A stretch of 63,986 nucleotides of DNA, the filler included, from an uncultured bacterium (GTDB taxonomy: Bacteria; DAOPZR01), in assembly GCA_964637655.1 (NCBI GenBank). It is 5 parts of 5 records of this genome, joined end to end, with 100 filler letters (N's around TTAATTAATTAA, not from the genome) between each part and the next. Parts side by side here need not be neighbours in the genome. Positions count along the whole stretch, not along the records: positions 26,991 to 40,207 come from CAZWUZ010000085.1; 4 more parts are not named here. One strand, given 5' to 3'. The translations under genes were made by a program, and so were the position numbers. Of the stretch, positions 13,417 to 53,512 are shown in pieces; position 1 is the stretch's first letter; each line of letters starts with the position of its first letter. Under the pieces are notes generated by a model, which saw nothing but the letters and a program-made list of their open reading frames with translations, had not been told where the DNA came from and searched no databases.

Positions 13417-13516
13417 NNNNNNNNNNNNNNNNNNNNNNNNNNNNNNNNNNNNNNNNNNNNTTAATTAATTAANNNNNNNNNNNNNNNNNNNNNNNNNNNN
13501 NNNNNNNNNNNNNNNN
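13417..13516. other. Artificial contig linker
   Basis: N run around the six-frame stop TTAATTAATTAA. Confidence 0.99.
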
Positions 13517-26890: not shown

Positions 26891-26990
26891 NNNNNNNNNN
26901 NNNNNNNNNNNNNNNNNNNNNNNNNNNNNNNNNNTTAATTAATTAANNNNNNNNNNNNNNNNNNNNNNNNNNNNNNNNNNNNNNNNNNNN
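26891..26990. other. Artificial contig linker
   Basis: N run around TTAATTAATTAA. Confidence 0.99.
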
Positions 26991-26991
26991 G

Positions 26992-27066
26992 GCCATTGCC
27001 AAGGGCCAGACGGTGCGGGTGGTCCGCGTCGTCGGCAGCGCTGTGATCGTCGAACCCATCTCCTGA
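26992..27066 (+). CDS. NfeD-family protein, C-terminal fragment
   Basis: Manual translation AIAKGQTVRVVRVVGSAVIVEPIS* resembles the end of the NfeD OB fold. Confidence 0.65.
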   Translation, partial: AIAKGQTVRVVRVVGSAVIVEPIS

Positions 27067-27091
27067 CCTTCTGACCTCTGACCTCTGACCT
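27063..27091 (+). repeat. Short tandem heptamer repeat (CTGACCT) x4
   Basis: ctgacct-t-ctgacct-ctgacct-ctgacct, read directly. Confidence 0.85.
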
Positions 27092-27124
27092 CGGCACCCT
27101 GAACCCCGACCACCGGCACACCTC

Positions 27125-28255
27125 ATGAACCCGACACCCATGCTTCTCGACCTCACCGGGGCCCTCCGCACGCTCGCCATCCCGGCGATGATTCTGCTGA
27201 GTGCGGTGGCGGTCATCGTGCTCGCCACCGGGACCGGCTGGACCGTGCTCACCGCACCCGTTACCTGGCTGCGCTTCCGTTTCCCGGAAAAACTGCTCTG
27301 CTATGCCGCACCCGCACTGTTTTACGTCGCCGCCACGGGACTGCAGCGCCTGCGGCTCAAGGTGCCGCTGCAGTACCTGCTGGTGATCCTGCTGGCCGGC
27401 GAACTGGCCTGGACGCAGGCCGGCTACTTTGTGCGCTTACCTTACGCGGCGACGCTGGAGGCCGGGCGGGTGTATGACCTGCCGGCCGGGAGCCGCGTGC
27501 TCACGCTGGTGTCGGAGAGCCTGCTCCCCGATTTTTCCGCCCGCGACCTGGCCGGTCATAGTCGCGAGCAACTGAAATACCGGTACCGTTTCGCGGCCAC
27601 CTTCTACGGCCTGGAATCGTATCTCGGGTACAGCCCGGCCCAGCTCGGGGCACATGCCGAGATCAACCGGGTCTTCTCCCGCGGTGATATCGATGCCCGC
27701 CGGAAATCGCTGGTGCTGCGCAATGCCGGCGTCCGCTACGTGATCAGCAAAATCCGGTTTTCGTCAGCCGCCCGGATGCCGCGCCAGCCGCTCTGGCTTC
27801 CGGTGCTATCTGTCCCGCACGAGAACCTGCAGGTGCACGAAATCGACGGGGCGCTGCCGCGCGCCGCCCTGTTCACGCCGGCGGTCGCCGCCCGCATGCG
27901 GACAGCGGACGACCTGACCGGCGACTATCCGTTTCTGCCGGTCACCGGCCTGGTACGAACCGGCGCCGGGCTTTCCTGCCGCGTGGCAACGGATACGCCG
28001 GTGGTGCTGGTCATCACGTCGTTTGCCTCTCCCGGCATGGAACTCGAGGTTGACGGACGTCGCCGGGCCAGCGGCCTCGCCTTCGGCATGTTCCCCGCCC
28101 TGCCGCTGCCGCCGGGCCAGCACCGGATCTCCTTCCGCTACCGGCCTGCGCTGCTGGAACTCAACCTGGTGATCTTGTTTGCCGGCCTGGCGGGTTGTTT
28201 GTGGTGCGCCCGCCGCTGGCGTGACGGCTCCCGGGATCACGCCGCGGATTGTTGA
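27125..28255 (+). CDS. Membrane protein resembling the C-terminal half of YfhO-family proteins
   Basis: TM helices, GVRYVI, ALPRA, ALPLPPGQHRISFRYRP, terminal TM. Confidence 0.6.
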   Translation: MNPTPMLLDLTGALRTLAIPAMILLSAVAVIVLATGTGWTVLTAPVTWLRFRFPEKLLCYAAPALFYVAATGLQRLRLKVPLQYLLVILLAGELAWTQAGYFVRLPYAATLEAGRVYDLPAGSRVLTLVSESLLPDFSARDLAGHSREQLKYRYRFAATFYGLESYLGYSPAQLGAHAEINRVFSRGDIDARRKSLVLRNAGVRYVISKIRFSSAARMPRQPLWLPVLSVPHENLQVHEIDGALPRAALFTPAVAARMRTADDLTGDYPFLPVTGLVRTGAGLSCRVATDTPVVLVITSFASPGMELEVDGRRRASGLAFGMFPALPLPPGQHRISFRYRPALLELNLVILFAGLAGCLWCARRWRDGSRDHAADC

Positions 28256-28280
28256 CGGCGACCGGGGATGGTGTTACGAT
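28252..28280 (+). promoter_or_regulatory. sigma70-type promoter for gdhA
   Basis: TTGACG-17-TACGAT with extended -10 TG. Confidence 0.6.
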
Positions 28281-28301
28281 GCGCGGCACACCGGCGCATG
28301 A

Positions 28302-29678
<1,377 letters not shown>

Positions 29679-29685
29679 CGGCGGC

Positions 29686-32325
29686 GTGATGGTGTCCGGC
29701 GGTGTCCCCGGCACGGGGCTCACCTCGCTCGACGCCATCCTGACGGGCGTGCGTCCGGGCGACAATATCGTCTGGCAGATCGATGACGTCGAGGACTACG
29801 CGGCCTTCACCGGGCCGTTCGTGGCGGCGGCGGTGGCGGCCGGCGTCCCGGTCGTCTACGTCCGTTTTGCCGGGCACCGCCCGCTGGTCGACCCGCAGCC
29901 CGGAGTGCGGACCGTCACGGTCGACCCGGCGGCGGGTTTCGAACCGTTCATCACCGGCATCCGCGACGTCATTACGGCGACCGGGCGCGGCGCCGCCTAT
30001 GTCTTCGATGTTCATTCCGAGCTGGCGCGCGACCTGTTCAGCGACCGCATGCTCGGCAATTTCTTCCAGCTCACCTGTCCCTACCTGTACGAACTCGGCA
30101 CGGTCGCCTATTTCGCCGTCTACCGGTCCTATCACTCCTATCATGCCGCGCAGCCGGTCAACGAGACGGCCCAGGTGCTCATCGATGTCTACCGGTTTCG
30201 CGAACAGCTCTATGTCCATCCGCTGAAGGTCGAGGGGAGATTCTCCCCGACCATCTTCACCCTGCAGGCGCGGCGCGGGGATGACTTCGCCCCGGTGCTC
30301 GACAGCACCGACATCGCGGAGGTCATCGCCGCCGCGCCGTGGCCCGGGCTGCAGTCCGCCTCCTACCGGCTGGTCGGGCAGCGCGACCGGCGCTTCATTC
30401 AGGCCGAGGAACTGGTCGAGGGGGTTCGTCGCGGCACCGTGCCGGCCGCGCTGGCGCAGGAAACCTTTCAGCGCCTGCTGCCGCAGATTTTCTCCGATGA
30501 CCGCCCCATCCTCGAACTGGCGGAGCGCTACCTGACGCTCCCCGACCTGATCTACCTCTGGAAGCGGATGATCGGGGGCGGGCGGGTGGGCGGCAAGACG
30601 GCGGGGATGCTCCTTGCGCGGCACATCCTGCTCGCCGCCGACCCGCGCTGGCAGGCCCTGCTCGCCGCGCACGATTCGTTCTTCATCGGCTCGGATGTTT
30701 TCTATACCTTCCTCACGGAGAACGACTGCTGGGAACTGCGCCAGAAACAGAAGCATCCCGCGACATTCCTCGACGATATCGACGAGGCACGGCGGCGGAT
30801 CATGGCCGGCGGCTTCCCCGAGTACATCGTGCGCCGCTTTGCCGACATGCTCGACTACTACGGCCAGGCGCCGATCATCGTCCGCTCCTCGAGTCTGCTC
30901 GAGGATAATTTCGGCAACGCTTTCGCCGGCAAGTACGACAGCGTCTTCTGTCCCAACCAGGGGAGCCGCGAGGAGCGACTCGCCGCGTTCCTCGACGCGG
31001 TGCGGGTCATCTACGCCAGCACGATGAGCGCGGAAGCGCTGACTTACCGCGCCCGCCGCGGCGTGCTCGACCGCGACGAGCAGATGGCGCTGCTCGTCCA
31101 GCGCGTCTCCGGACGTCCCTACGGCCGCTACTTTCTGCCGCAGCTTGCCGGCGTGGCGTTCTCCTTCAATCCCTACGTCTGGAATGATGCCATCGACCCG
31201 CATGCCGGCATGGTGCGCCTGGTGGCCGGACTCGGCACGCGCGCGGTCGACCGTACCGATGACGACTATACCCGGGTGGTCGCGCTGAATGTGCCCGACC
31301 TGCGGCCGGAGGCGGACTTCGACCAGGTGAAGAAGTACGCCCAGCGCCGCGTCGATGTCATCGATCTCGAACACAACCGCTGCGCCGCAGCCTACTTTGT
31401 CGACCTGGCCGCGGCCGCCACCGGCTTCCCGGTGGCGCTGCTGGCGACACTGGATGACGCCCAGGCCGAGGCGGCGCGCGAAAGCGGGCGCGCGCTGCGC
31501 GTGCAGCCGTGGGTGCTCACCTTCGACCGCGCGCTGCACGAGACGCCGCTGCTGGCCGATCTCACGGCGATGCTTGCCACGCTGCGGCAGGCGTACGGGC
31601 GCGAGGTGGATATCGAGTTTGCGGCGAATTTCCGCGACGACGGGAGCTACACCATCAACCTGCTGCAGTGTCGACCGTTCCAGGTGCGCATCGGCATGGC
31701 CACGGATGCCGCGGTCATCCCGGAAAACTGCGCCGAGCGCGTCATCCTGCACGCCCGTGATGCGGTCATCGGGCAGGGGCGCATCATTGCCGTCGACCGT
31801 CTCGTCTACGTCGTGCCTGATGCCTACGGGCACCTGGGCGAGCAGGACCGCTACGCGGTCGCGCGGCTGATCGGGCGGCTGGTGCATGCGGAGCAGAACC
31901 GCACGCTGATGCTCATCGGGCCGGGACGCTGGGGCACCCACATGCCGAGCCTCGGGGTGCCCGTGACGTTCAGTGAGATCAACACCGCCGCGGTCATCTG
32001 CGAGATCGACACCATGCACGAGGGGCTGGTTCCCGACCTGTCGCTCGGCACGCATTTCTTCAACGAGATGGTCGAGCAGGACATGCTCTATCTTGCCTAC
32101 TTCGCCGCCAGGCCGGGCAACCGTATCGACCGCGACTTCCTGCAGCAGGCGCCGAACCGGCTGACCGACCTGCTCCCTGACGCGGCGGCGTGGACGGAAA
32201 CGGTGCGGGTGATCGACGCCGGCAGTGCGCCCGACGCACCGCGGTTCTATCTCAAGGCGGACTCCGTGCAGCGGACCGCCACCCTCTTTGCCGCGTCCGC
32301 CCATGTCTGTGCCTTCAAAACCTGA
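29686..32325 (+). CDS. PEP/pyruvate-binding (PPDK_N/PEP synthase-like ATP-grasp) domain protein
   Basis: VGGKTAGM, IVRSSSLLED...FAGKYDS, GLGTRAV, VDIEFA, LLQCRP; no phospho-His or PEP domain seen. Confidence 0.85.
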   Translation: MMVSGGVPGTGLTSLDAILTGVRPGDNIVWQIDDVEDYAAFTGPFVAAAVAAGVPVVYVRFAGHRPLVDPQPGVRTVTVDPAAGFEPFITGIRDVITATGRGAAYVFDVHSELARDLFSDRMLGNFFQLTCPYLYELGTVAYFAVYRSYHSYHAAQPVNETAQVLIDVYRFREQLYVHPLKVEGRFSPTIFTLQARRGDDFAPVLDSTDIAEVIAAAPWPGLQSASYRLVGQRDRRFIQAEELVEGVRRGTVPAALAQETFQRLLPQIFSDDRPILELAERYLTLPDLIYLWKRMIGGGRVGGKTAGMLLARHILLAADPRWQALLAAHDSFFIGSDVFYTFLTENDCWELRQKQKHPATFLDDIDEARRRIMAGGFPEYIVRRFADMLDYYGQAPIIVRSSSLLEDNFGNAFAGKYDSVFCPNQGSREERLAAFLDAVRVIYASTMSAEALTYRARRGVLDRDEQMALLVQRVSGRPYGRYFLPQLAGVAFSFNPYVWNDAIDPHAGMVRLVAGLGTRAVDRTDDDYTRVVALNVPDLRPEADFDQVKKYAQRRVDVIDLEHNRCAAAYFVDLAAAATGFPVALLATLDDAQAEAARESGRALRVQPWVLTFDRALHETPLLADLTAMLATLRQAYGREVDIEFAANFRDDGSYTINLLQCRPFQVRIGMATDAAVIPENCAERVILHARDAVIGQGRIIAVDRLVYVVPDAYGHLGEQDRYAVARLIGRLVHAEQNRTLMLIGPGRWGTHMPSLGVPVTFSEINTAAVICEIDTMHEGLVPDLSLGTHFFNEMVEQDMLYLAYFAARPGNRIDRDFLQQAPNRLTDLLPDAAAWTETVRVIDAGSAPDAPRFYLKADSVQRTATLFAASAHVCAFKT

Positions 32326-32351
32326 TACCGCGTGATGCCGCGCGGCTGCAG

Positions 32352-33104
32352 TCAGCGCAGGTTGTCACCGTAGAAGAGAAAGTCCCAGTATTTTTTCGTG
32401 CGCAGCAGTCGGCCGGGCATGAAAATGAAACGGAACAGGGTCGGCAGCAGGTGCCAGCGGTTGATGCGGCTGAACTTGCGGGCTGAGGTGAGCAGCGGGA
32501 TCTCCGTCAGCCAGGTCAGGTAGCGCTGGCCGCGGGTTTTCCCGAGCGCCTTGAGCCGCCAGGCAAATTCGAGGTCCTCCGCCGCGTACAGGTTTTCGTT
32601 GAACCCGCCGAGCGTGATGAAGTCGGCGCGCCGCAGGAAGTAGATGCCGCCCCCCAGCTGCAGGATTTTGACCATGAGCGTGAGCGCCAGACAACCGAGC
32701 CGGATGGAGAGGTTGGTTTCGTCCGGAACAATGGCGACGCTGCCGCCGACGATGTCGCCGCGGTGCAGCAGCTCCGCGGCGACGCGCAGCGTGTCGGGAT
32801 GCATGGCGCTGTCGGCATCGACGGTGAGGATGAATTCGCCGCGCGCGGCGGCAGCCCCGGTATTGCGCACCCGCGCGATATTACGGCGCTCTTCGCGCAC
32901 GACGATGCAGCCGCGCTCGCGGGCGATGGCGGCGGTGCGGTCAGTCGAGGCGTTGTCCGCGACGATGATCTCGACGGGGAAGTCGATCCGGGCGCGGGCA
33001 GTGTCGATGGCATCGAGGCCGCGCGGCAGATAGCGCTCCTCGTTGTAGGCGGGGATGACGATGGAGAAGAGGGGGGGCGCCGGTTCAGCCGGAGACGGTT
33101 CCAT
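32352..33104 (-). CDS. Glycosyltransferase family 2
   Basis: SIVIPAYNEE, DNASTD, RNTGA, VDAD, AEDLEF, SARKF. Confidence 0.92.
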   Translation of the reverse strand: MEPSPAEPAPPLFSIVIPAYNEERYLPRGLDAIDTARARIDFPVEIIVADNASTDRTAAIARERGCIVVREERRNIARVRNTGAAAARGEFILTVDADSAMHPDTLRVAAELLHRGDIVGGSVAIVPDETNLSIRLGCLALTLMVKILQLGGGIYFLRRADFITLGGFNENLYAAEDLEFAWRLKALGKTRGQRYLTWLTEIPLLTSARKFSRINRWHLLPTLFRFIFMPGRLLRTKKYWDFLFYGDNLR

Positions 33105-33113
33105 GGCACCGGC

Positions 33114-33176
33114 ATGGTAGCACCGCGGCGGCGGTGGCGTCAACGCGTTGACGTGCGTGCGGGGGGGTGCTACGAT
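33114..33176. promoter_or_regulatory. Back-to-back divergent sigma70 promoters
   Basis: Palindrome CGTCAACGCGTTGACG; + strand TTGACG-17-TACGAT, - strand TTGACG-18-TACCAT, both with extended -10. Confidence 0.65.
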
Positions 33177-33205
33177 GCCGGTGAAACCATGACGGGGAAG
33201 AACCG

Positions 33206-33688
33206 ATGAACACACGATGCTGCGGATGGGGCCTGCTGGCGGGTGTGCTGCTGACGCTGACCGGCTGCGCCACCGTACCGCACGAAAGGACGACAGCCAT
33301 GCGTCAGGAAGTGCTATTCACGGAGGCGGCGCCCCGGCCGATCGGGCCGTACGCGCAGGCGGTGCGCGCGGGGGAATTCCTCTTTCTGTCAGGACAGATC
33401 CCGCTCGACCCGGCGACCGGGGAACTGGTAACCGGGGATGTCGAAACCCAGACGCGGCGCGTGCTTGACAATATGCGGGCGGTACTGCAGGCCGCGGGCA
33501 GCGGGATGGACCGCGTGGTCAAGACGACCATTTTCCTGCAGTCGATGGACGATTTTCCGAAAGTGAACGCGGTGTACGCGGAATACTTCCCCGCCACGCC
33601 ACCCGCCCGGTCGACGGTCGAAGTCTCGCGCCTGCCGAAAAGCGTTGCGGTGGAGATTGAAGCGATTGCGCTGGCGGGCGGCAACTGA
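33206..33688 (+). CDS. RidA/YjgF family protein (alternative start at 33299)
   Basis: [43 protein letters not shown]. Confidence 0.93.
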
Positions 33689-34755
33689 TGGGTGCCGCGC
33701 GGCTGATCGCAGCGGTTCTGCTGGCGCTGCTGCTCGCGGCCTGCGGCAAACCGGTGCCGCCGGTGGCGACCACGGCGGACACCGTGGCAGCAGCACCGGC
33801 CGCGGTCGCGCCGGAACCCGCCGGCCCCGCGCGGGCCGTCACCAACGAGGCATACCTCGAAGAAGCGCTGGCGGTCATCAACGCGGCACAGTCGGAAATC
33901 GAGGTGGTGCAGTTCGAATTTGTCTACGGGCGCGGCGCGGTGGCGAAACTGCAGCAGGCGCTGGGGGAGGCGGCGGCACGCGGGGTGCAGGTCAGCGTGC
34001 TGCTCGACGAAGAGGTCGAACGCTCGGCGCAGGCGCTGCCGCATCTCGCCCGCCTTGGCATTACCGCGCAACTCGACTCTCCCGACAAGCGCACGCATGT
34101 CAAGCTCATCCTGGCCGACCGGCGGGTCGCGCTCTTCGGCTCGACCAACTGGACCGACCAGTCGATCCTGCGCACCAACGAATCGAATATCCGCATCAAC
34201 GACCCGGTGCTCGGGGCGGCGCTGCATGCCTACGTGCGCGGCCTGTGGGAACGTCCGGAAGCGAACGCCTCACCGGAGACAGCGGCGAGCGGCGGGCTGA
34301 CGCTGCTCTTCGACCGCGCCTATGAGCCGGAGGCGAAAGCGCTGCTGCGGACGGCGCAGCGCATCGAGCTGCAGCTCTACGGGGTGCGCTACTACGCCGA
34401 CCAGCAGGCCAGCCCGTCGAGCGCACTGGTGACCCTGGTGGCGGACGCGGCGCGGCGCGGGGTGCCGGTGCGCGCCATCATCGAGGAATCGGATTTTAGC
34501 GAGATGACCAACCGCTTCAACGGCGAGGTGGTTGACCTGTTCCGGCAGGCGGGCGTGACGGTGCGACGCGACCCGTTCGACCGCACGTCGCACAGCAAGA
34601 TGCTGCTGACCGACCGCGCGGTCATCATCGGCTCCACCAACTGGGGCTACGGGGCCATGCGCGAATACCATGAACTGAACGTGCTGATCACGGATCCGGC
34701 GGTTGCTGACGGGTTCCGGCAGTACTACGAGACACTGTGGCGTGACGCCCGGTGA
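33688..34755 (+). CDS. Phospholipase D-family lipoprotein
   Basis: Lipobox LLAAC; two HKD motifs (HVKLILAD..GSTNW and HSKMLLTD..GSTNW). Confidence 0.9.
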   Translation: MGAARLIAAVLLALLLAACGKPVPPVATTADTVAAAPAAVAPEPAGPARAVTNEAYLEEALAVINAAQSEIEVVQFEFVYGRGAVAKLQQALGEAAARGVQVSVLLDEEVERSAQALPHLARLGITAQLDSPDKRTHVKLILADRRVALFGSTNWTDQSILRTNESNIRINDPVLGAALHAYVRGLWERPEANASPETAASGGLTLLFDRAYEPEAKALLRTAQRIELQLYGVRYYADQQASPSSALVTLVADAARRGVPVRAIIEESDFSEMTNRFNGEVVDLFRQAGVTVRRDPFDRTSHSKMLLTDRAVIIGSTNWGYGAMREYHELNVLITDPAVADGFRQYYETLWRDAR

Positions 34756-34766
34756 CGGAGGATGGC

Positions 34767-35057
34767 ATGGCCGCACGTGACCTGAAGGCGGAAATCATCG
34801 CGGTGGCAGCGGCGGATGCCGCGTTCCGCGAGCAGTTGCTGCGTGATCCGCGCGCGGCCATCAGCGCGCGCTTCGGGGTGACCGTACCGCCGGCACTGCG
34901 TATTGACGTGGTGGAGGATACCGCGGAGCGGGTAACCATTCCCCTGCCGCTGCGGCGCGACGTGCTGCCGGAGGGCATGCTCGAGGCGGTGGCCGGCGGC
35001 ACGGGGTGCACGAACGACCAGCCCAACGGGCTCGGGGCCCAGGGCCCGGTCAGCTGA
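34767..35057 (+). CDS. NHLP-leader RiPP precursor peptide A1
   Basis: D-AFR--LL-DPRAA...IDVVEDT...LP...LEAVAGG leader (78 aa) plus core TGCTNDQPNGLGAQGPVS; GGAGG SD. Confidence 0.92.
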   Translation: MAARDLKAEIIAVAAADAAFREQLLRDPRAAISARFGVTVPPALRIDVVEDTAERVTIPLPLRRDVLPEGMLEAVAGGTGCTNDQPNGLGAQGPVS

Positions 35058-35078
35058 AGCCGGCGGGGGAGGAAGGTC

Positions 35079-35369
35079 ATGGCACGACGTGATCTGAAAA
35101 CGGAAATCATCGCAGCAGCAGCGACTGATGACGCGTTCCGCGCGGAACTGTTGCGCGACCCGCGTGCGGCAATCAGCGCGCGCTTCGGGGCAACCGTGCC
35201 GCCGGCACTGCGCATCGACGTGGTGGAGGATACCGCGGAGCGCGTCACCATCGCCCTGCCGCTGCGTCGCGACGAACTGCCGGAGGGCATGCTCGACGCG
35301 GTGGCCGGCGGCACCGGCTGCGGCGTTGGCAGCGTGATCGGCCTCATGTCGCCTGGCCCGATCAGCTGA
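35079..35369 (+). CDS. NHLP-leader RiPP precursor peptide A2
   Basis: Leader 67/78 identical to A1 by manual count, ending LDAVAGG; core TGCGVGSVIGLMSPGPIS; GGAGG SD. Confidence 0.92.
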   Translation: MARRDLKTEIIAAAATDDAFRAELLRDPRAAISARFGATVPPALRIDVVEDTAERVTIALPLRRDELPEGMLDAVAGGTGCGVGSVIGLMSPGPIS

Positions 35370-35377
35370 CCGCGCGC

Positions 35378-36826
35378 ATGCCCGAACAGGCGGTAGCCGG
35401 ACTGGCCAACAGCACCGTCTCGTGGATCATCACTGCCCGTTGCCAGAACCGCTGCCGCCACTGTTACATCTTCAACGAATCGACCTACGCCAGCGAACTC
35501 GCGGGCGAACTTGATTATGCCGGCCTGCTGCGGGTGCTCGACAGCATCCTTGCGTTCGAGAAAAAGTATCGCACGCGCTTTGCCACCTTCGTGCTTGGCG
35601 GCGGCGACCCGCTGCTGCATCCCGCCTGGTTCGATCTGGCGCAGCACCTGCACGGACTGGGGCGTGACCTTGCCGTTATCGGCAACCCGGAAACGCTGAC
35701 GGACGACAATCTCGACCGGCTGGCGGCGGCCGGGGTGGCGACGTTCCAACTGAGCATCGACGGCCTGGAAGCCGCGCATGACGAATTGCGCCAGGACGGC
35801 AGTTTCCGGCGCACGCTGGCGGCCATTCCCCGCCTCAAGGCGCACGGCATCAAAACCGGGCTGATGTTCACCCTGTCAGAACGCAACCGCGACGACCTGT
35901 TCCCGCTGATTGATTTTCTCGCGGCGGAAACGGCAGCCGACTCCTTTGCCTTCGACCTCTGCTGTCCGACGGGCAACGGGCGGGAGTTGACGGTCGGACT
36001 CGCTCCGGATGAGGTGGATGCCTGCTGTCGCCGCTACCTGCAGCGCAAGGATGAACTGCGTGCCGCCGGCAGCGCACTGCATCTGGCCGAGCGGCCGACC
36101 GCATTGCGCCTGGCGCGTTTCGCGCGCGGCGAGTTCCATCCGGTGGGGAGCGACGTGCTGGGTGCGGTTTCCGGCTGTGTCTGCGGCTGGGCTCCGCCGC
36201 CCATCCTCGCTGACGGCACCGTCATCCCCTGCCGGCGTATCCCCATTCCGCTGGGGCGCATTCCGGAACAGTCGTTCGAGGAGATATTCCTCGGGCACGA
36301 ACTGCTGCGGCGGTTCCGCCGGCGCGAATCGTACGCGGTGTGCGGCAGTTGTGATCTGTACGCGGTCTGCCGCGGCTGCCCGGGCTTCGCGTACGGGGCG
36401 ACGGGCGATCCGTTTGCCGCCAACCCGCACTGCTATCGCGACCACTTGCCGGCGACGACAGCGCCGGTGCCCTGCCCGACGCTGGCACTGCCGCTGGATG
36501 CCGCGCCGGCGGAGGAGTTCGCGCTGGTAGCCAGCCATTTCGGCAGCTACCTGCCCGCGCATCGTAACGAACTGCTGTGGCATCCCGCGGTACTGTCGCT
36601 GCTGGTGACCCTGGGGAGCGACGCGGTGCGGCGCCGGGAATTCCTGCGCGATCCGCGGGCGTACGGCGCGGCGCACGGGGTGGTGCTTACTGACCTGCAG
36701 CTGACGATGGTGGTGCATCTGTTGCAGGGGGTGGCGATGGGGTGGCTGCGGGCGGAAGACCTGCAGGCGCTGGCGGCGTATCAGTTTGCCGTGGTCGACG
36801 TTGACCGTAGTGGGGAGCGGTGTTAG
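35378..36826 (+). CDS. Radical SAM/SPASM peptide maturase
   Basis: CQNRCRHC, GGDPL, SIDG; SPASM GCVCG...GTVIPC...CGSCDLYAVCRGC...C; starts 8 nt after precursor A2. Confidence 0.9.
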   Translation: MPEQAVAGLANSTVSWIITARCQNRCRHCYIFNESTYASELAGELDYAGLLRVLDSILAFEKKYRTRFATFVLGGGDPLLHPAWFDLAQHLHGLGRDLAVIGNPETLTDDNLDRLAAAGVATFQLSIDGLEAAHDELRQDGSFRRTLAAIPRLKAHGIKTGLMFTLSERNRDDLFPLIDFLAAETAADSFAFDLCCPTGNGRELTVGLAPDEVDACCRRYLQRKDELRAAGSALHLAERPTALRLARFARGEFHPVGSDVLGAVSGCVCGWAPPPILADGTVIPCRRIPIPLGRIPEQSFEEIFLGHELLRRFRRRESYAVCGSCDLYAVCRGCPGFAYGATGDPFAANPHCYRDHLPATTAPVPCPTLALPLDAAPAEEFALVASHFGSYLPAHRNELLWHPAVLSLLVTLGSDAVRRREFLRDPRAYGAAHGVVLTDLQLTMVVHLLQGVAMGWLRAEDLQALAAYQFAVVDVDRSGERC

Positions 36827-36865
36827 GATGCAGAACAACGCGGTCACAGGTGCGGTGGAGGACTG

Positions 36866-37708
36866 ATGGCTGATTCCTGTCGCGAGGTCATCCGGGTCGA
36901 AGACCTGCAGGTGCAGTTTGGCGGCAAGCAGGTGCTGCGCGGCATCGACATGACCGTGTGCGAGGGGCAGAACTACGTCCTCATGGGCGGCTCGGGTTGC
37001 GGCAAGTCGGTGCTGATGAAGAATATCCTGCGCCTGCTGCGCCCCGACGCGGGACGCATCCTGCTGTGGGGCACCGACATCGCCACGCTCAGTGACGACG
37101 AGATGGACGCCCTGCGCCGGAAGATCTCCTACGTGTTCCAGGACGGGGCGCTGCTCAGCAACCTGACGGTGGCGGGTAATGTCGGCTTCGCCCTGCGCGA
37201 GCATACGCACCTGACCCCGGCGGAAATCGCGCGGCGGGTCGACGAAAAACTCGAGTGGGTCAACCTTGCGGGAACGCAGCACCTGCTGCCGTCGGAACTC
37301 TCCGGGGGCATGCGCAAGCGGGTGGCCATCGCCCGCGCCCTGGCGACGGAACCGGACCTGATCTTCTACGACGAGCCGACGACCGGGATGGACCCGCCGC
37401 TGTCAGACACCCTCGACCAGCTCATCTACGACCTCAACCGGCGGCTCAAGTGCACCTCGGTGACCATCACGCATGACCCGGTGGCGGCGTTCTATTTCGG
37501 GAACCGTTTCGGCATGATTCACGCGGGGAAGATGCGCTTCGAGGGGACGCTCGACGAACTGCGCGAGTGCGACGACCGCCATGTGGTCGAGTTCATCACC
37601 CGCCGCCTGCATCCCGACGACCGCCGCCGCCACTACATCACCGGCCTGACCGGGCGCCCCGGCAAACCGTCCTGGCGCCGGGCAGGCGAATCCACCCCGC
37701 CCGCCTGA
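36866..37708 (+). CDS. ABC transporter ATP-binding protein, MlaF/Mkl-like
   Basis: GGSGCGKS, ELSGGMRKRVAIARA, YDEPTTGMDP, ITHD. Confidence 0.9.
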   Translation: MADSCREVIRVEDLQVQFGGKQVLRGIDMTVCEGQNYVLMGGSGCGKSVLMKNILRLLRPDAGRILLWGTDIATLSDDEMDALRRKISYVFQDGALLSNLTVAGNVGFALREHTHLTPAEIARRVDEKLEWVNLAGTQHLLPSELSGGMRKRVAIARALATEPDLIFYDEPTTGMDPPLSDTLDQLIYDLNRRLKCTSVTITHDPVAAFYFGNRFGMIHAGKMRFEGTLDELRECDDRHVVEFITRRLHPDDRRRHYITGLTGRPGKPSWRRAGESTPPA

Positions 37709-38623
37709 TTACTGTTTTACGCAGCGGACCGCGGGGAGCAGCGCCGCGGCCGCGGCGGGTGCCGCGCAGGCGATGTCCCAGGCCGCGGCGGAAGCGGCAG
37801 CGAGCGCGGCGGCGGCGGTCAGGGTAGGCGGCAGTTCCTGCCCTTCGCTGAGCCCGTACAGCAGCGCCGCACTGAGCACATCACCACAACCGATGGCATT
37901 GATTTCGCCGACGGGCGGCGGTGTCACCTGCCACACGGCATCTGCCGTTGCCGCATACCACGGCCCGGGCCCGTCGGTAACGACGGCGAGCAGCCGGGCC
38001 TTCCCGGCGAGTTCGCGGGCGGCATCTGACGGCACGGCGGCAGCGAAGGTCCGGGCATATTCCTCGCGATTGCACTTGATGATGTCGGGCTGCGCGGCGA
38101 GCGCCGCGCGCAGCGGGGCGCCGCAGGCGTCGATGAGGACGCGTGCCCCGCGCGCCTGCGCTGTTGCGGTGAGCGCGGCATAAACCGTATCGGGACAATC
38201 GCGCGGCAGCGTGCCGCACAGCGCCAGCCAGTCACCTTCATTGAGCAGTTCGTCCACCATCGCCATCAGCGCTGCGATTTCGGCCACGGTCACTGCCGGG
38301 GGCGGCTCGAAGACCGCGGTGGCGGGTGCGTCCGCCGTGCGCAGTGTCCACCCCTCGCGCGTCTCCGCGGCGATGCTGACGAAACGGTGCGGGATGCGGT
38401 CGCGGTCGCAACAGGCGCGCACGCGCTCGCCTGTCGCGCCGCCGAAAAAGCCGGTGGCGACAGTCGCTGCGCCGAGGTGCACCAGTTGCCGGGCGACGTT
38501 GATGCCCTTGCCCCCGGCAACTTCCGTGACTGCGGTGGCGCGGTTGATGCCGCCCGCCTGCAGCGACGGCAGGTCGAGCGTCTTGTCGAGCATCGGGTTG
38601 GGCGTGACGGTAACGATGCGCAT
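37709..38623 (-). CDS. 1-phosphofructokinase-family hexose kinase (PfkB)
   Basis: TVTPNPMLD, GGKGINVA, IKCNREE, NAIGCGD. Confidence 0.9.
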   Translation of the reverse strand: MRIVTVTPNPMLDKTLDLPSLQAGGINRATAVTEVAGGKGINVARQLVHLGAATVATGFFGGATGERVRACCDRDRIPHRFVSIAAETREGWTLRTADAPATAVFEPPPAVTVAEIAALMAMVDELLNEGDWLALCGTLPRDCPDTVYAALTATAQARGARVLIDACGAPLRAALAAQPDIIKCNREEYARTFAAAVPSDAARELAGKARLLAVVTDGPGPWYAATADAVWQVTPPPVGEINAIGCGDVLSAALLYGLSEGQELPPTLTAAAALAAASAAAWDIACAAPAAAAALLPAVRCVKQ

Positions 38624-38629
38624 GGCGGT

Positions 38630-38699
38630 ATGATACCACAAACCGGACGGGTCGGCCAAAGCATACCTATTGACGGGGTGAGCGGGCAGCAGGTAGGAT
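38630..38699. promoter_or_regulatory. Divergent sigma70 promoters (pfkB-family gene / mutM)
   Basis: - strand TTGGCC-18-TATCAT ending 6 nt before the ATG; + strand TTGACG-18-TAGGAT. Confidence 0.5.
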
Positions 38700-38716
38700 A
38701 CGCGCGGAGGAACCGC

Positions 38717-39538
38717 ATGCCGGAACTGCCCGAAGTAGAAACCGTTGTCAGGGGGCTGCAGCGGCTGCGCGGACACTGTTTTGTGCGGGTCGGCATTCAC
38801 GCGCCGCGGCTGCGCCATGCGCTGCGGCCGCGCGATTTCGCCCCGGTTACAGGGGAGCGCATCGTGGCGGTGCGCCGCCGTGCCAAGTACATCATCATCG
38901 AGTGCGCCAACCGCGCGGCGCTGGTCTGCCATCTCGGGATGACCGGCTCGTTCCGTTTCGTCGCCTGCGCTGACAACCGCGGCAAACATGACCATATCGA
39001 CTGGCAGCTCGACGACGGCAGGTGCCTGCGCTACAACGACCCGCGGCGCTTCGGCAGAGCGGTGGTGGTGCACCTGGTGCGGCGCGGTGCCGATCCTGAC
39101 GTGCTGGCGCATCTCGGGCCGGAACCGCTCGGTACGCAGTTTGCCGCGGCGTATCTGTTCGCGGCCACGCGCGGGCGGTCAGCGGCTATCAAGCCATTTA
39201 TCATGGACCAGCGTGTCGTGGTCGGGGTGGGAAACATCTATGCCTCCGAGGCGCTGCATCGCGCCGGTATCCGCCCGGGGCGCCACGCGGGGAAGGTGAC
39301 GCGCGCGGAATGCGCGCGGCTGGTGACGGAAATCAGGCGCGTACTGCGCATGGCCATACGTGCGGGCGGGACGACCATCAGCGATTACCGCGACGCGGAC
39401 GGCAGCGAAGGGAAGTTTGATGTGCGCCTGCGGGTTTACGGGCGCGCAGGAGAAACGTGTGGCGCCTGTGGCGACATAATCCGCCAGCAGGTGCTTGGCG
39501 GCCGTTCCAGTTTCTACTGTCCCTTCTGCCAATCTTGA
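38717..39538 (+). CDS. mutM: Formamidopyrimidine-DNA glycosylase
   Basis: MPELPEVET, HLGMTG, DPRRFG, GVGNIYASE, C-terminal Zn finger. Confidence 0.97.
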   Translation: MPELPEVETVVRGLQRLRGHCFVRVGIHAPRLRHALRPRDFAPVTGERIVAVRRRAKYIIIECANRAALVCHLGMTGSFRFVACADNRGKHDHIDWQLDDGRCLRYNDPRRFGRAVVVHLVRRGADPDVLAHLGPEPLGTQFAAAYLFAATRGRSAAIKPFIMDQRVVVGVGNIYASEALHRAGIRPGRHAGKVTRAECARLVTEIRRVLRMAIRAGGTTISDYRDADGSEGKFDVRLRVYGRAGETCGACGDIIRQQVLGGRSSFYCPFCQS

Positions 39539-39546
39539 CGCGTGCG

Positions 39547-39588
39547 CATATTGCACATATTGCACACATTAGAATTATATGCTACCAT
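39547..39588 (+). promoter_or_regulatory. sigma70 promoter with a tandem CATATTGCA repeat over the -35
   Basis: TTGCAC(39560)-17-TACCAT(39583) in an AT-rich intergenic stretch. Confidence 0.5.
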
Positions 39589-39619
39589 ACGTGCAACATT
39601 ACGTTGAAAGCGGCAGGAC

Positions 39620-40207
39620 ATGGAAAGAGAAGGGCTATTCTACGACCTTATCGACCTTTTAGCCAAGGCGCTCGATTTCGATGAGGGGATAAAACTCAAT
39701 CACGGGCAGCGGGTGGCGGTCATCGCCTATGACATCGCGGCGATGCTGCAGCTGCCCGATCGTGTGCCGCTCTACCTCTGCGCGCTGCTGCACGACATCG
39801 GCGCCATCGGGCTGGCGGACCATATTGTGCACATTTCGCTGCGCAAGGAATCACAGTTGCGCGAAGTGGTGGACCACGCGGTGCGCGGCGGGCGGGTGTT
39901 GCGCCATGTGCCGTACCTGAAAGCGCATCGCCGATCCATCTATGAACACCACGAACATTACAACGGCACGGGCTACCCGCATGGCCTGTGCGGGGAGGCC
40001 ATTACGCTGCCGGCGCAGATCATCGGGTTTGCCGACCAGATTGACCTCGCGCTGCGGCGCGGGATCAAGCCCGCCGCGCTGCCCGACGAAGTGCGGGCCA
40101 TGCGCGACCGGGAATACGCCGCCATCGTCATCGATGCGTTCTGTGCCCTGCCGCGTCCGGTGCGCACCACCTACGCCAGCGACGCGGCGATGCGCACGCG
40201 GCACCGC
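39620..40207 (+). CDS. HD-GYP domain protein, 3'-partial
   Basis: HGQRVA, LLHDIG, HHEHYNGTGYP. Confidence 0.9.
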
Positions 40208-40307
40208 NNNNNNNNNNNNNNNNNNNNNNNNNNNNNNNNNNNNNNNNNNNNTTAATTAATTAANNNNNNNNNNNNNNNNNNNNNNNNNNNNNNNNNNNNN
40301 NNNNNNN
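40208..40307. other. Artificial contig linker
   Basis: N run around TTAATTAATTAA. Confidence 0.99.
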
Positions 40308-53412: not shown

Positions 53413-53512
53413 NNNNNNNNNNNNNNNNNNNNNNNNNNNNNNNNNNNNNNNNNNNNTTAATTAATTAANNNNNNNNNNNNNNNNNNNNNNNNNNNNNNNN
53501 NNNNNNNNNNNN
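53413..53512. other. Artificial contig linker
   Basis: N run around TTAATTAATTAA. Confidence 0.99.

Follow-up and report, generated by a model that had tools for sequence, protein, structure and literature searches.

Introduction

To our knowledge, the characterised maturases of NHLP peptides are epimerases, B12 methyltransferases, YcaO and LanM enzymes and halogenases. Ranthipeptide and sactipeptide maturases usually, though not universally, carry an N-terminal PqqD-like RRE. Radical SAM/SPASM maturases rank among the chief origins of novel peptide chemistry, and the recognition of large folded NHLP leaders is presented as an active question in two articles (PMC12455567, PMC12537861), which describe NHLPs as structured leaders whose protein-protein contacts differ by enzyme. 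For thioether formation, precedents are PapB, reported to form Cys-to-Asp/Glu thioethers at Cys-X3-Asp/Glu with n = 0-6 accepted (PMC9413430), and the account of PapB and Tte1186 in which the substrate Cys or Sec binds an auxiliary cluster (PMC10177961).

The two curated families closest to the enzyme described here are ACGX (TIGR04340) and SbtM (TIGR04082). We found no published chemistry for the ACGX system, and the terms ACGX, NHLP and SbtM do not occur in a 2021 perspective (PMC10114670). CrpC, a ranthionine-forming SPASM enzyme of methanogens, was considered as a description of ACGX and rejected, being given as a TIGR04463 enzyme with an RRE (PMC13692751). For SbtM, the reported product from Cys or Sec is a thio(seleno)oxazole, formed by removal of four hydrogens (PMC11002830). 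The clade described below falls between SbtM and the ACGX system, the latter so far known as a catalogue entry rather than by its chemistry.

Results

A probable three-gene RiPP cassette

The window, that is, the whole stretch of 63,986 nucleotides that was analysed, consists of five pieces of ~13.2 kb with paired N blocks between them, so that the true genomic context of the locus is only positions 26991-40207. Within this contig we annotated the following features:

34767..35057, + strand: preA, 96-aa NHLP-leader precursor (TIGR03793, 59.9 bits; translation)
34767-35000, + strand: preA leader, ending AVAGG
35001-35054, + strand: preA core, TGCTNDQPNGLGAQGPVS, with a Cys3-x-x-Asp6 motif
35079..35369, + strand: preB, 96-aa NHLP-leader precursor, paralogue of preA (TIGR03793, 66.3 bits)
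35079-35312, + strand: preB leader, ending AVAGG
35313-35366, + strand: preB core, TGCGVGSVIGLMSPGPIS, with one Cys and without acidic residues
35378..36826, + strand: predicted radical SAM/SPASM maturase, 482 aa (PF04055, PF13186, TIGR04340 below cut-off, tree)
35441..35464, + strand: CX3CX2C (CQNRCRHC, residues 22-29), predicted site of the SAM-binding [4Fe-4S] cluster
36176..36433, + strand: SPASM region (PF13186), residues 267-352, seven Cys, two predicted auxiliary [4Fe-4S] clusters
36443..36823, + strand: clade-specific C-terminal extension, residues 356-482 (~125 aa), all-helical
36596..36694, + strand: NHLP-leader-like segment SLLVTLGSDAVRRREFLRDPRAYGAAHGVVLTD, residues 407-439 of the enzyme, aligning to leader residues 9-42

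The preliminary description of this DNA had reported two tandem 96-aa genes, each encoding a 78-aa leader that ends in AVAGG and an 18-aa core, and this arrangement is indeed seen; both products also score above the curated cut-off of the NHLP-leader model TIGR03793 (50.9 bits). In each, the double-glycine motif, the predicted cleavage site, is followed by a short variable core. PreA and preB are identical at 75 of 96 positions (78%), with 67 identities among the 78 leader positions and 8 among the 18 core positions. Translation likewise bears out the earlier statement that each core has exactly one Cys (at position 3) and no aromatic residue. Each precursor gene is preceded by a strong ribosome-binding site, GGAGGA, at 34757-34762, 5 nt 5' of the preA ATG at 34767 (ORF calling gives an alternative GTG start at 34752), and again at 35068-35073 5' of preB. 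The enzyme gene starts 8 nt after the preB stop, and the reading frames of all three genes are intact. A terminator scan returned 2 sites, vs. 2.2 expected by chance.

The neighbours on the contig are housekeeping-like, with RidA and PLD genes flanking the three genes. We found no epimerase, B12 methyltransferase, YcaO, LanM or halogenase gene in the 13.2-kb contig. A leader protease or exporter was found neither there nor in the other four pieces of the window, which counts against the explanation favoured below. To call the pathway minimal, as the preliminary description did, goes beyond what so short a contig with neither function can demonstrate. The PLD-like lipoprotein and an ABC ATPase were considered as further cluster members and rejected, since neither is common to the nearest relative; the match of the ABC ATPase to C39 transporters is restricted to the nucleotide-binding part. 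A neighbouring glutamate dehydrogenase has its nearest named matches in MAGs of several phyla, at 78-80% identity.

Domains and predicted fold of the enzyme

The Pfam scores of the enzyme, 70.1 bits for PF04055 and 33.6 bits for PF13186, agree with the initial reading of a radical SAM enzyme with a full SPASM Cys set. Comparison with 28 relatives shows that C22, C26 and C29 of the CX3CX2C motif are invariant (28/28), as are the seven SPASM cysteines C267, C285, C322, C325, C331, C334 and C352; by the precedent of CteB, we take these seven to leave one cluster site open. Only 21 residues precede CX3CX2C, so an N-terminal RRE cannot fit, and no PqqD-type Pfam match was obtained in the enzyme at E <= 0.01. 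The AF2 model (pLDDT 89.1) finds SkfB, SuiB, PqqE, ChlB, anSME and CteB as fold matches in the PDB. A complex prediction for the enzyme with precursor, three 4Fe-4S clusters and SAM scored 0.04 and 0.16 (mark 0.32) and is neutral on binding.

Placement among curated families

Among the 50 NCBIfam matches to the enzyme, TIGR04340 was the best, in line with the resemblance to ACGX-system maturases proposed in the preliminary description, but its score of 227.6 bits is below the curated cut-off of 400 bits and the enzyme is therefore not a member. TIGR04082 came second (151.9 bits, cut-off 350), matching over profile positions 200-515 only. The AhbD (131 bits, cut-off 500) and NirJ (125 bits, cut-off 515) models were also among the top matches, with heme and mycofactocin enzymes among the weaker ones; no curated family was matched at or above its cut-off. 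Among 28 clade members, of which the other 27 were assessed by best E-values only, the best E-value for TIGR04340 was 6.1e-75; TIGR04082 was matched by 28/28 (best E 2.4e-57) and NF047865 (PapB) by 18/28 (best E 3.1e-16).

A tree built from core columns only places the enzyme in an unnamed clade, one branch apart from its sister group, the short ACGX-type enzymes. One search gave at least 75 long-type sequences for this clade. The same division is seen in length: 75 enzymes have 99 aa or more beyond the last SPASM Cys, 28 have 22 aa or fewer, and a single tree branch divides the two sets. The system had been called probably undescribed. This holds insofar as no family cut-off was reached and we found no publication on the clade or on a clade member acting on an NHLP peptide; nevertheless, what the locus represents is an unstudied branch of radical SAM/SPASM-modified NHLP peptides, not a new type of system.

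Precursors and core motifs at relatives' loci

At the locus of the nearest relative (L001), the enzyme is 78% identical and has one NHLP precursor directly upstream. The flanking genes there are RsgA and TPR genes vs. RidA and PLD here, so that the precursor and enzyme are the only genes in common; the retention of the precursor despite different flanks marks the cassette as a conserved unit. A C39 transporter is encoded in the genome of this relative, on another contig. Across long-type loci, an ORF combining a leader with a tail that contains Cys was present at 14 of 23 loci from genomes and 12 of 19 from metagenomes (26/42, in many phyla), and no precursor was found at the other 9/23 and 7/19. 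Ten of the precursor-bearing loci came via the NHLP HMM and two more were above the Nif11 cut-off; many candidate precursors were chosen by eye, and 5 of 10 such candidates match no RiPP-leader model. Relatives' loci also carry B12-rSAMs, other rSAMs and a C39-ABC transporter. This recurrent adjacency supports the earlier proposal of a precursor-plus-maturase system, and the three genes very probably form a RiPP cassette in which the radical SAM maturase is directed at Cys.

The relatives' precursors are of NHLP or Nif11 type, with a Cys typically 2-4 residues past the GG. In 30 unique cores, the first Cys is at position 2 in 17 and at positions 2-4 in 23. Of 29 unique cores, 13 have Asp three residues after the first Cys (+3), compared to a background of 8.8%, and the remaining 16 lack it there. 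Counted by locus group, Cys-X2-Asp is present in 7 of 18, among them preA (CTND) and L001 (CIND); many such cores are paralogues, and at the level of loci the enrichment has P = 0.05 under a generous background of 0.2. Leaders and cores differ greatly, and of the core only the Cys itself is conserved throughout. A Cys-centred modification, as anticipated in the preliminary description, fits this near-GG Cys, and the enzyme probably modifies the single Cys of each peptide.

A leader-like segment in the C-terminal extension

The C-terminal extension, which like the lack of an RRE went unremarked in the preliminary description, is modelled by AF2 as six helices (pLDDT 86.0). An extension profile matched 55 proteins among 1.84 billion representatives and recovered genuine NHLP precursors, with E-values from 5.6e-7 to 1.8e-5 (whole library). 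Alignment of the leader-like segment to the leader by hhalign gave scores of 19-21 (P = 0.003-0.006), which none of 200 column shuffles reached; the similarity, in the same segment, is short and remote, with an hhalign probability of 6-10%. NF038399 matched the segment with E = 0.024. A PDB fold search with the extension alone returned no match at E <= 0.001 (Os1348, E = 2.6, and a proteusin precursor, E = 6.6, were not significant), and comparison with the protein atlas gave no usable match.

The extension accompanies long NHLP or Nif11 leaders, whereas the extension-free ACGX enzymes accompany repeat peptides with short leaders. One explanation, an unlikely one, is that the extension is an NHLP-leader-derived or convergent domain that pairs like-with-like with the structured NHLP/Nif11 leader, the product being a minimal Cys-modified peptide. 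If so, leader recognition would be RRE-independent, a mode undescribed for radical SAM maturases, and the peptide would carry either a ranthionine ring of four residues, from Cys to Asp, or a possibly metal-binding thiooxazole close to its N-terminus. As a docking module, the leader-like extension would offer a new recognition principle of use in engineering.

Candidate modifications of the core cysteine

We tentatively favour a Cys-to-acceptor thioether as the product, at a little short of an even chance; an SbtM-like thiooxazole is less likely but not far behind in plausibility, and all other chemistry taken together comes slightly below that. For the thioether, both NHLP-leader peptides would be bound by the radical SAM/SPASM enzyme, and because the enzyme has no RRE, leader binding would probably run via the helical C-terminal extension that holds the leader-like segment. 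Cys3 after the GG would then coordinate auxiliary cluster I at its open site, as the cases of PapB, Tte1186 and CteB suggest, and the 5'-deoxyadenosyl radical would take a hydrogen from an acceptor residue, giving an S-C thioether (-2 Da). In preA, the likeliest acceptor would be Asp6 of Cys-X2-Asp, closing a small ranthionine-type ring. The leader would be cut after GG, presumably by a C39-type protease/exporter encoded elsewhere.

Besides the analogy of the open cluster site with PapB, Tte1186 and CteB, the enrichment of Asp at +3, preA and L001 included, argues for a thioether, as does the presence of Cys-X3-Asp/Glu in 32 of 33 ACGX peptides of the sister clade, which is the motif spacing reported for PapB (PMC9413430). 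On the other hand, the preB core has no Asp, Glu or Asn, no acceptor position is common to all cores, and ACGX enzymes are themselves putative thioether makers, whereas SbtM, the only experimentally characterised of the two closest families, is reported to make a thiooxazole (PMC11002830).

The thiooxazole would arise, as with SbtM, by oxidation of the Cys and the preceding carbonyl (-4 Da); it has a reported chromophore at 302-305 nm (PMC12538549), and the product could be a small thiol/azole metal-binding peptide. This route needs no acceptor side chain and so explains why the Cys is the sole universal core feature, also in preB and other non-acidic cores. The SbtM model is second best for the enzyme and is matched by all 28 clade members, and true-SbtM precursors end in GSU or SSU (3/8 loci, by eye), resembling GTGC here and GSGCSGSC in L010. 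It leaves the Asp at +3 unexplained, however, and neither preA nor preB has a Sec codon. The score falls far short of the 350 bits required for SbtM, the first ~200 residues of the profile have no counterpart in the enzyme, where the match begins at profile position 200, and the closer relatives, the ACGX enzymes, adjoin thioether-like Cys-X3-Asp/Glu repeats.

It is improbable that the enzyme catalyses another radical reaction without a new sulfur bond (for example epimerisation, cross-linking through C-C or C-O, or beta/gamma functionalisation), with the Cys serving just as an anchor of the core on an auxiliary cluster or as a recognition element. Radical SAM/SPASM enzymes of the same fold catalyse many types of reaction, as the fold matches to SuiB, PqqE, ChlB and anSME illustrate; the heme and mycofactocin matches noted above are consistent with such a reaction, as is the literature, in which we found no chemistry for the clade or the ACGX enzymes. 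Against this, the only conserved core feature is the Cys itself, cyclophane or Trp/Tyr cross-links would need an aromatic residue, which is absent from the cores in the window, and both closest curated families pair with Cys/Sec peptides. That the adjoining peptides are not substrates of the enzyme (which would be, for example, a cofactor or tetrapyrrole enzyme like AhbD or NirJ) or that the cassette is inactive, with the adjacency incidental, is very improbable: the AhbD and NirJ matches, the housekeeping-like flanks and the want of a nearby protease/exporter speak for it, but both scores are far under their cut-offs, the precursor-enzyme pairing recurs in 26/42 loci of many phyla and is retained in the nearest relative although the flanks differ, and the frames are intact, the precursor ribosome-binding sites strong and the catalytic cysteines invariant.

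Discussion

The cassette is a sound lead to new peptide chemistry. With one enzyme and two 18-residue single-Cys cores, it makes a very small test system that represents a whole unstudied clade, and the chemistry of this clade would probably also shed light on the ACGX enzymes, a much larger family from gut and rumen microbes.

Comparison with known systems

The catalytic core is closest to ACGX: TIGR04340 covers enzyme residues 14-355 on profile positions 5-340, that is, the whole core, the enzyme shares 32-39% of its residues with short ACGX-type enzymes, and ACGX substrates also bear Cys. However, ACGX enzymes stop 2-22 residues past the last SPASM Cys, whereas the present clade adds at least 99, and ACGX peptides combine a short leader with tandem C-G-x-x-D/E (32/33), compared to an NHLP leader, GG and one core Cys here. 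ACGX-repeat ORFs adjoin 40 of 61 short-type enzymes; the enzyme in the window has single-Cys NHLP precursors as neighbours instead. SbtM resembles the present system in acting on Cys/Sec among small residues, but it has a ~200-residue N-terminal part in place of a C-terminal extension, and its precursors have Sec and a signal-peptide-like N-terminus (by eye), not an NHLP leader.

With ranthipeptide and sactipeptide maturases the enzyme shares the radical SAM/SPASM fold, SkfB and CteB being among the top PDB matches, although the sequence relation is distant, the leader is of another type and the thioether is here a prediction; the RRE usual on those maturases is absent from this enzyme, the extension of which is all-helical. 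Finally, proteusin and other NHLP/Nif11 RiPPs have in common with this locus an NHLP leader scoring above the curated cut-off and a GG site. Proteusin clusters pair such a leader with epimerase or B12-rSAM type maturases; on the short 13.2-kb contig we found none of these, and relatives' loci do carry B12-rSAMs.

The precursor and enzyme genes

The window consists of five separate pieces joined at pairs of N-blocks (44 N each, with 12 bases between) at 13417-13516, 26891-26990, 40208-40307 and 53413-53512, so that gene neighbourhood is unreadable across the joins and the context of the cassette is positions 26991-40207. The preliminary description had placed here two NHLP-leader precursor genes, preA and preB, and a radical SAM/SPASM maturase gene 8 nt downstream, and both coordinates and spacing were borne out.

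Features of the cassette and the adjoining genes
33688-34755, plus strand: PLD-like protein, ending 11 nt before preA
34767-35057, plus strand: preA, 96-aa peptide with NHLP leader and core
35079-35369, plus strand: preB, 96-aa peptide with NHLP leader and core
35378-36826, plus strand: enzyme (radical SAM/SPASM), starting 8 nt past the preB stop
36866-37708, plus strand: ABC ATPase without membrane domains, starting 39 nt after the enzyme

The hexamer GGAGGA (34757-34762) precedes the preA ATG at 34767, an identical hexamer (35068-35073) lies before preB, and ORF calling gives an alternative GTG start for preA at 34752. Both leaders, assigned earlier by inspection, scored above the 50.9-bit cut-off of the curated NHLP-leader model (59.9 bits for preA and 66.3 bits for preB). 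The two peptides share 75/96 residues (67/78 in the leader and 8/18 in the core), a conserved leader with a divergent core being usual for paralogous RiPP precursors. The cores behind AVAGG are TGCTNDQPNGLGAQGPVS (preA) and TGCGVGSVIGLMSPGPIS (preB), each with a single Cys and no aromatic residue.

On both sides lie genes of housekeeping character, with glutamate dehydrogenase, PPDK-like, GT2 glycosyltransferase (minus strand), RidA and PLD-like genes before preA, and the ABC ATPase, PfkB kinase (minus strand), MutM and HD protein genes 3' of the enzyme. Promoter-like sites were found before RidA (33148-33176) and before the ABC gene (36801-36829), and none directly 5' of preA; terminator-like sites in the scan were not more frequent than expected by chance. 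There are weak hints that the cassette is co-transcribed with the RidA and PLD genes. The N-terminus of the PLD-like protein resembles, by eye, a lipoprotein signal; this gene and the ABC ATPase gene lie on the cassette strand but are missing beside the nearest relative, at locus L001. Across all five pieces of the window, preA and preB are the only NHLP peptides, the enzyme is the only one of its type, and no C39 peptidase was found.

Relationship of the enzyme to known maturases

The enzyme matched both PF04055 and PF13186. Its CX3CX2C motif (residues 22-29) and the SPASM Cys set noted earlier, seven cysteines in all, do not vary across 28 aligned relatives. A resemblance to ACGX-system maturases, put forward in the preliminary description, held: the top NCBIfam model was TIGR04340 (ACGX-system radical SAM enzyme), though at 227.6 bits it remained under its cut-off of 400. 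TIGR04082 (SbtM) came second (151.9 bits, likewise under its cut-off of 350), followed by AhbD, NirJ and others, all far under their cut-offs. All 28 aligned relatives show the same pattern (best TIGR04340 E-value 6.1e-75).

Among 8000 candidates scored in a search of 5.8 billion proteins, 222 matched the enzyme, one of them at 78% identity. About 85 of these have 37-46% identity over about 90% of the length (435-603 aa), and the next matches (about 350-375 aa, one source-named 'of ACGX system') reach only 71% coverage. Of 120 listed proteins, 17 failed the motif pattern and were left out; in a tree of the other 103, computed from catalytic-core columns only, one branch (SH-aLRT 84) splits 75 long-tailed from 28 short-tailed enzymes, the tail being the residues after the last SPASM Cys (long, at least 99; short, at most 22). 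The best PDB matches to the AF2 model (pLDDT 89.1) were SkfB, SuiB, PqqE, ChlB, anSME and CteB. The enzyme belongs to an uncharacterised, extension-bearing sister clade of the ACGX maturases, probably acting on NHLP or Nif11 peptides with a Cys near the cleavage site. A literature search confined to non-subscription main texts found no publications that deal with this clade or with the chemistry of the ACGX system. One long-type member, P0022 (770 aa), has precomputed prenyltransferase/squalene-cyclase-like repeats (PF13243, PF00432 and PF13249).

Conservation of the precursor-enzyme pair

At L001 (enzyme 78% identical), a single NHLP precursor with the core TIRCINDSLVGAMSGANG lies immediately upstream of the enzyme, whereas the flanks are unlike those in the window (RsgA and TPR genes upstream, unrelated genes downstream), so that the conserved unit is the precursor(s) plus the enzyme. 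Beyond this unit, the clusters that the window shares are limited to the nucleotide-binding domain of an ABC protein and to spurious antisense ORFs within the radical SAM gene. A precursor HMM trained on the window peptides together with the first matches detected NHLP precursors in L001, L002, L006, L010, L012, L083, L086, L090, L092 and L102. By eye, further candidates were seen adjoining the enzyme at genome loci L003, L008, L011, L014, L015, L016, L018, L020 and L022 and at metagenome loci L081, L085, L088, L089, L094, L101 and L110, every one with a leader-like N-terminus and a Cys-containing tail. When ten of these were scanned with RiPP-leader models, two passed the Nif11-leader cut-off (L085 and L081), three gave sub-threshold NHLP or Nif11 matches (L003, L020 and L018) and five had no meaningful match. 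No candidate was seen in genome loci L004, L005, L007, L009, L013, L017, L019, L021 and L023 or metagenome loci L082, L084, L087, L091, L093, L095 and L100; in several of these the enzyme lies where the contig ends.

Homologues lacking adjacent precursors had been named beforehand as evidence against the proposed system; with HMM and by-eye picks combined, a precursor lies beside the long-type enzyme at 14/23 genome loci and 12/19 metagenome loci, sets that partly duplicate each other (L083 is like L006, and L086 like L012). A non-functional or unrelated pairing is very improbable.

Other relatives' loci carry B12-binding radical SAM enzymes, more radical SAM enzymes and a C39-ABC transporter, which makes the window cassette the smallest form seen. 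The distribution of the enzyme is patchy: it was found at E <= 1e-40 in one of 60 relatives' genomes searched, the one with L001 and L010, where a C39 transporter lies on a separate contig. In L003 (3628-8409) and L008 (Halanaerobiales/Fuchsiella), a 94-aa Cys-rich precursor is flanked by two paralogous long-type radical SAM genes, with a third, different radical SAM gene upstream.

The C-terminal extension

The extension (residues 356-482) is all-helical in the models (pLDDT 86-93 in the full model, 86.0 folded alone) and matched no Pfam family. Several results connect its residues 407-439 with the N-terminal helices of NHLP leaders. The NHLP-clan model NF038399 matched it at E 0.024, and 3/18 extensions overall. 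When 28 extensions were aligned by hhalign to the adjacent leaders, residues 407-439 aligned to leader residues 9-42 with a score of 19-21 (P 0.003-0.006), yet with a probability no higher than 6-10%; in 200 trials with the columns of the leader alignment shuffled, this score was never reached (mean 9.6, sd 2.0, max 17.5). A profile of 18 extensions retrieved 55 proteins at E <= 0.001 from 1.84 billion representatives, mostly long-type radical SAM enzymes or fragments, and also P0271 (5.6e-7), P0279 (1.5e-5) and P0280 (1.8e-5). By TIGR03793 score, P0271 (106.7 bits) and P0279 (113.2 bits) are true NHLP precursors of the tandem kind; P0280 is sub-threshold (39.1 bits). In all three, a tandem pair of NHLP leader domains precedes a single GG site and core, which hints at possible pairing between NHLP domains. 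P0248, a 185-aa fragment, has the extension of a long-type radical SAM enzyme and, in frame behind it, an NHLP leader (57.6 bits with TIGR03793); it could be either a fusion of enzyme and precursor that exists in nature or gene-call read-through. No significant match came from a PDB fold search with the extension, NHLP-clan Os1348 and a proteusin precursor appearing in weak rows only.

Since the extension is present with long structured leaders and absent with short-leader repeat peptides, we infer that it is a leader-docking module in place of the missing RRE. P0271 also gave a weak match (E 0.0074) to TIGR04517, the model for PoyD-type epimerases, over its positions 11-76; from this single weak match, leader-like segments might also occur in other NHLP maturases.

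Core motifs and candidate chemistries

Cores were parsed from the first GG-type site, giving 30 unique sequences in which a few larger Cys positions are parsing artefacts. Position 2 holds the first Cys in 17/30, and in 23/30 this Cys falls within positions 2-4; Trp or Tyr follows it directly in 15/30. Asp occupies the +3 position from this Cys in 13/29 (overall Asp, 8.8%), or in 7/18 locus groups (binomial P = 0.0005 against the raw background and 0.05 when a generous background of 0.2 is assumed). The motif is present in preA (CTND) and L001 (CIND) and absent from preB (CGVG).

A Cys-directed radical modification is the best-supported reading of the cassette; the earlier observation is confirmed and its interpretation partly supported. 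That the product is a thioether, we propose tentatively, at somewhat less than an even chance. It is favoured because the nearest relatives adjoin thioether-like Cys-Xn-Asp/Glu motifs, because this clade, preA included, shows an enrichment of Asp at +3, and because there are only seven invariant SPASM cysteines, which by the precedent of CteB presumably leave one cluster site for a substrate thiol. The core Cys thiol would bind this open site, and thioether formation would follow. An SbtM-like thiooxazole at the Cys better accounts for preB and the many cores without an acidic acceptor, and we consider it unlikely but a real contender; other radical chemistries are improbable.

Comparison with the ACGX and SbtM systems

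At 40/61 loci of short ACGX-type enzymes, a neighbouring ORF contains two or more [AGS]CG motifs. Among 33 unique ACGX repeat peptides, Cys-X3-Asp/Glu occurs in 32 and Cys-X2-Asp/Glu in none, and the +4 residue after Cys (n = 229) is Asp 122 times, Cys 64 times and Glu 23 times. These repeats (L024-L080) are better written Cys-Gly-x-x-Asp/Glu. The spacing equals that of the six Cys-X3-Asp/Glu thioether motifs described for PapB, which also accepts n = 0-6 (PMC9413430), and by this analogy suggests that the ACGX system may make ranthionine-type linkages. In PapB and Tte1186, the substrate Cys or Sec ligates an auxiliary cluster (PMC10177961).

For SbtM, PMC11002830 describes the loss of four hydrogens from Cys or Sec, with a thio(seleno)oxazole as the product. 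In one phylum, 21/301 genomes contained true SbtM genes, and adjacent ORFs with GSU or SSU ends were seen by eye at 3/8 loci inspected. These small ORFs (L165, L166 and L169), with TGA read as Sec, also have, by eye, a signal-peptide-like N-terminus. The small-residue context of their GSU and SSU ends is not unlike GTGC in the window core and GSGCSGSC in L010.
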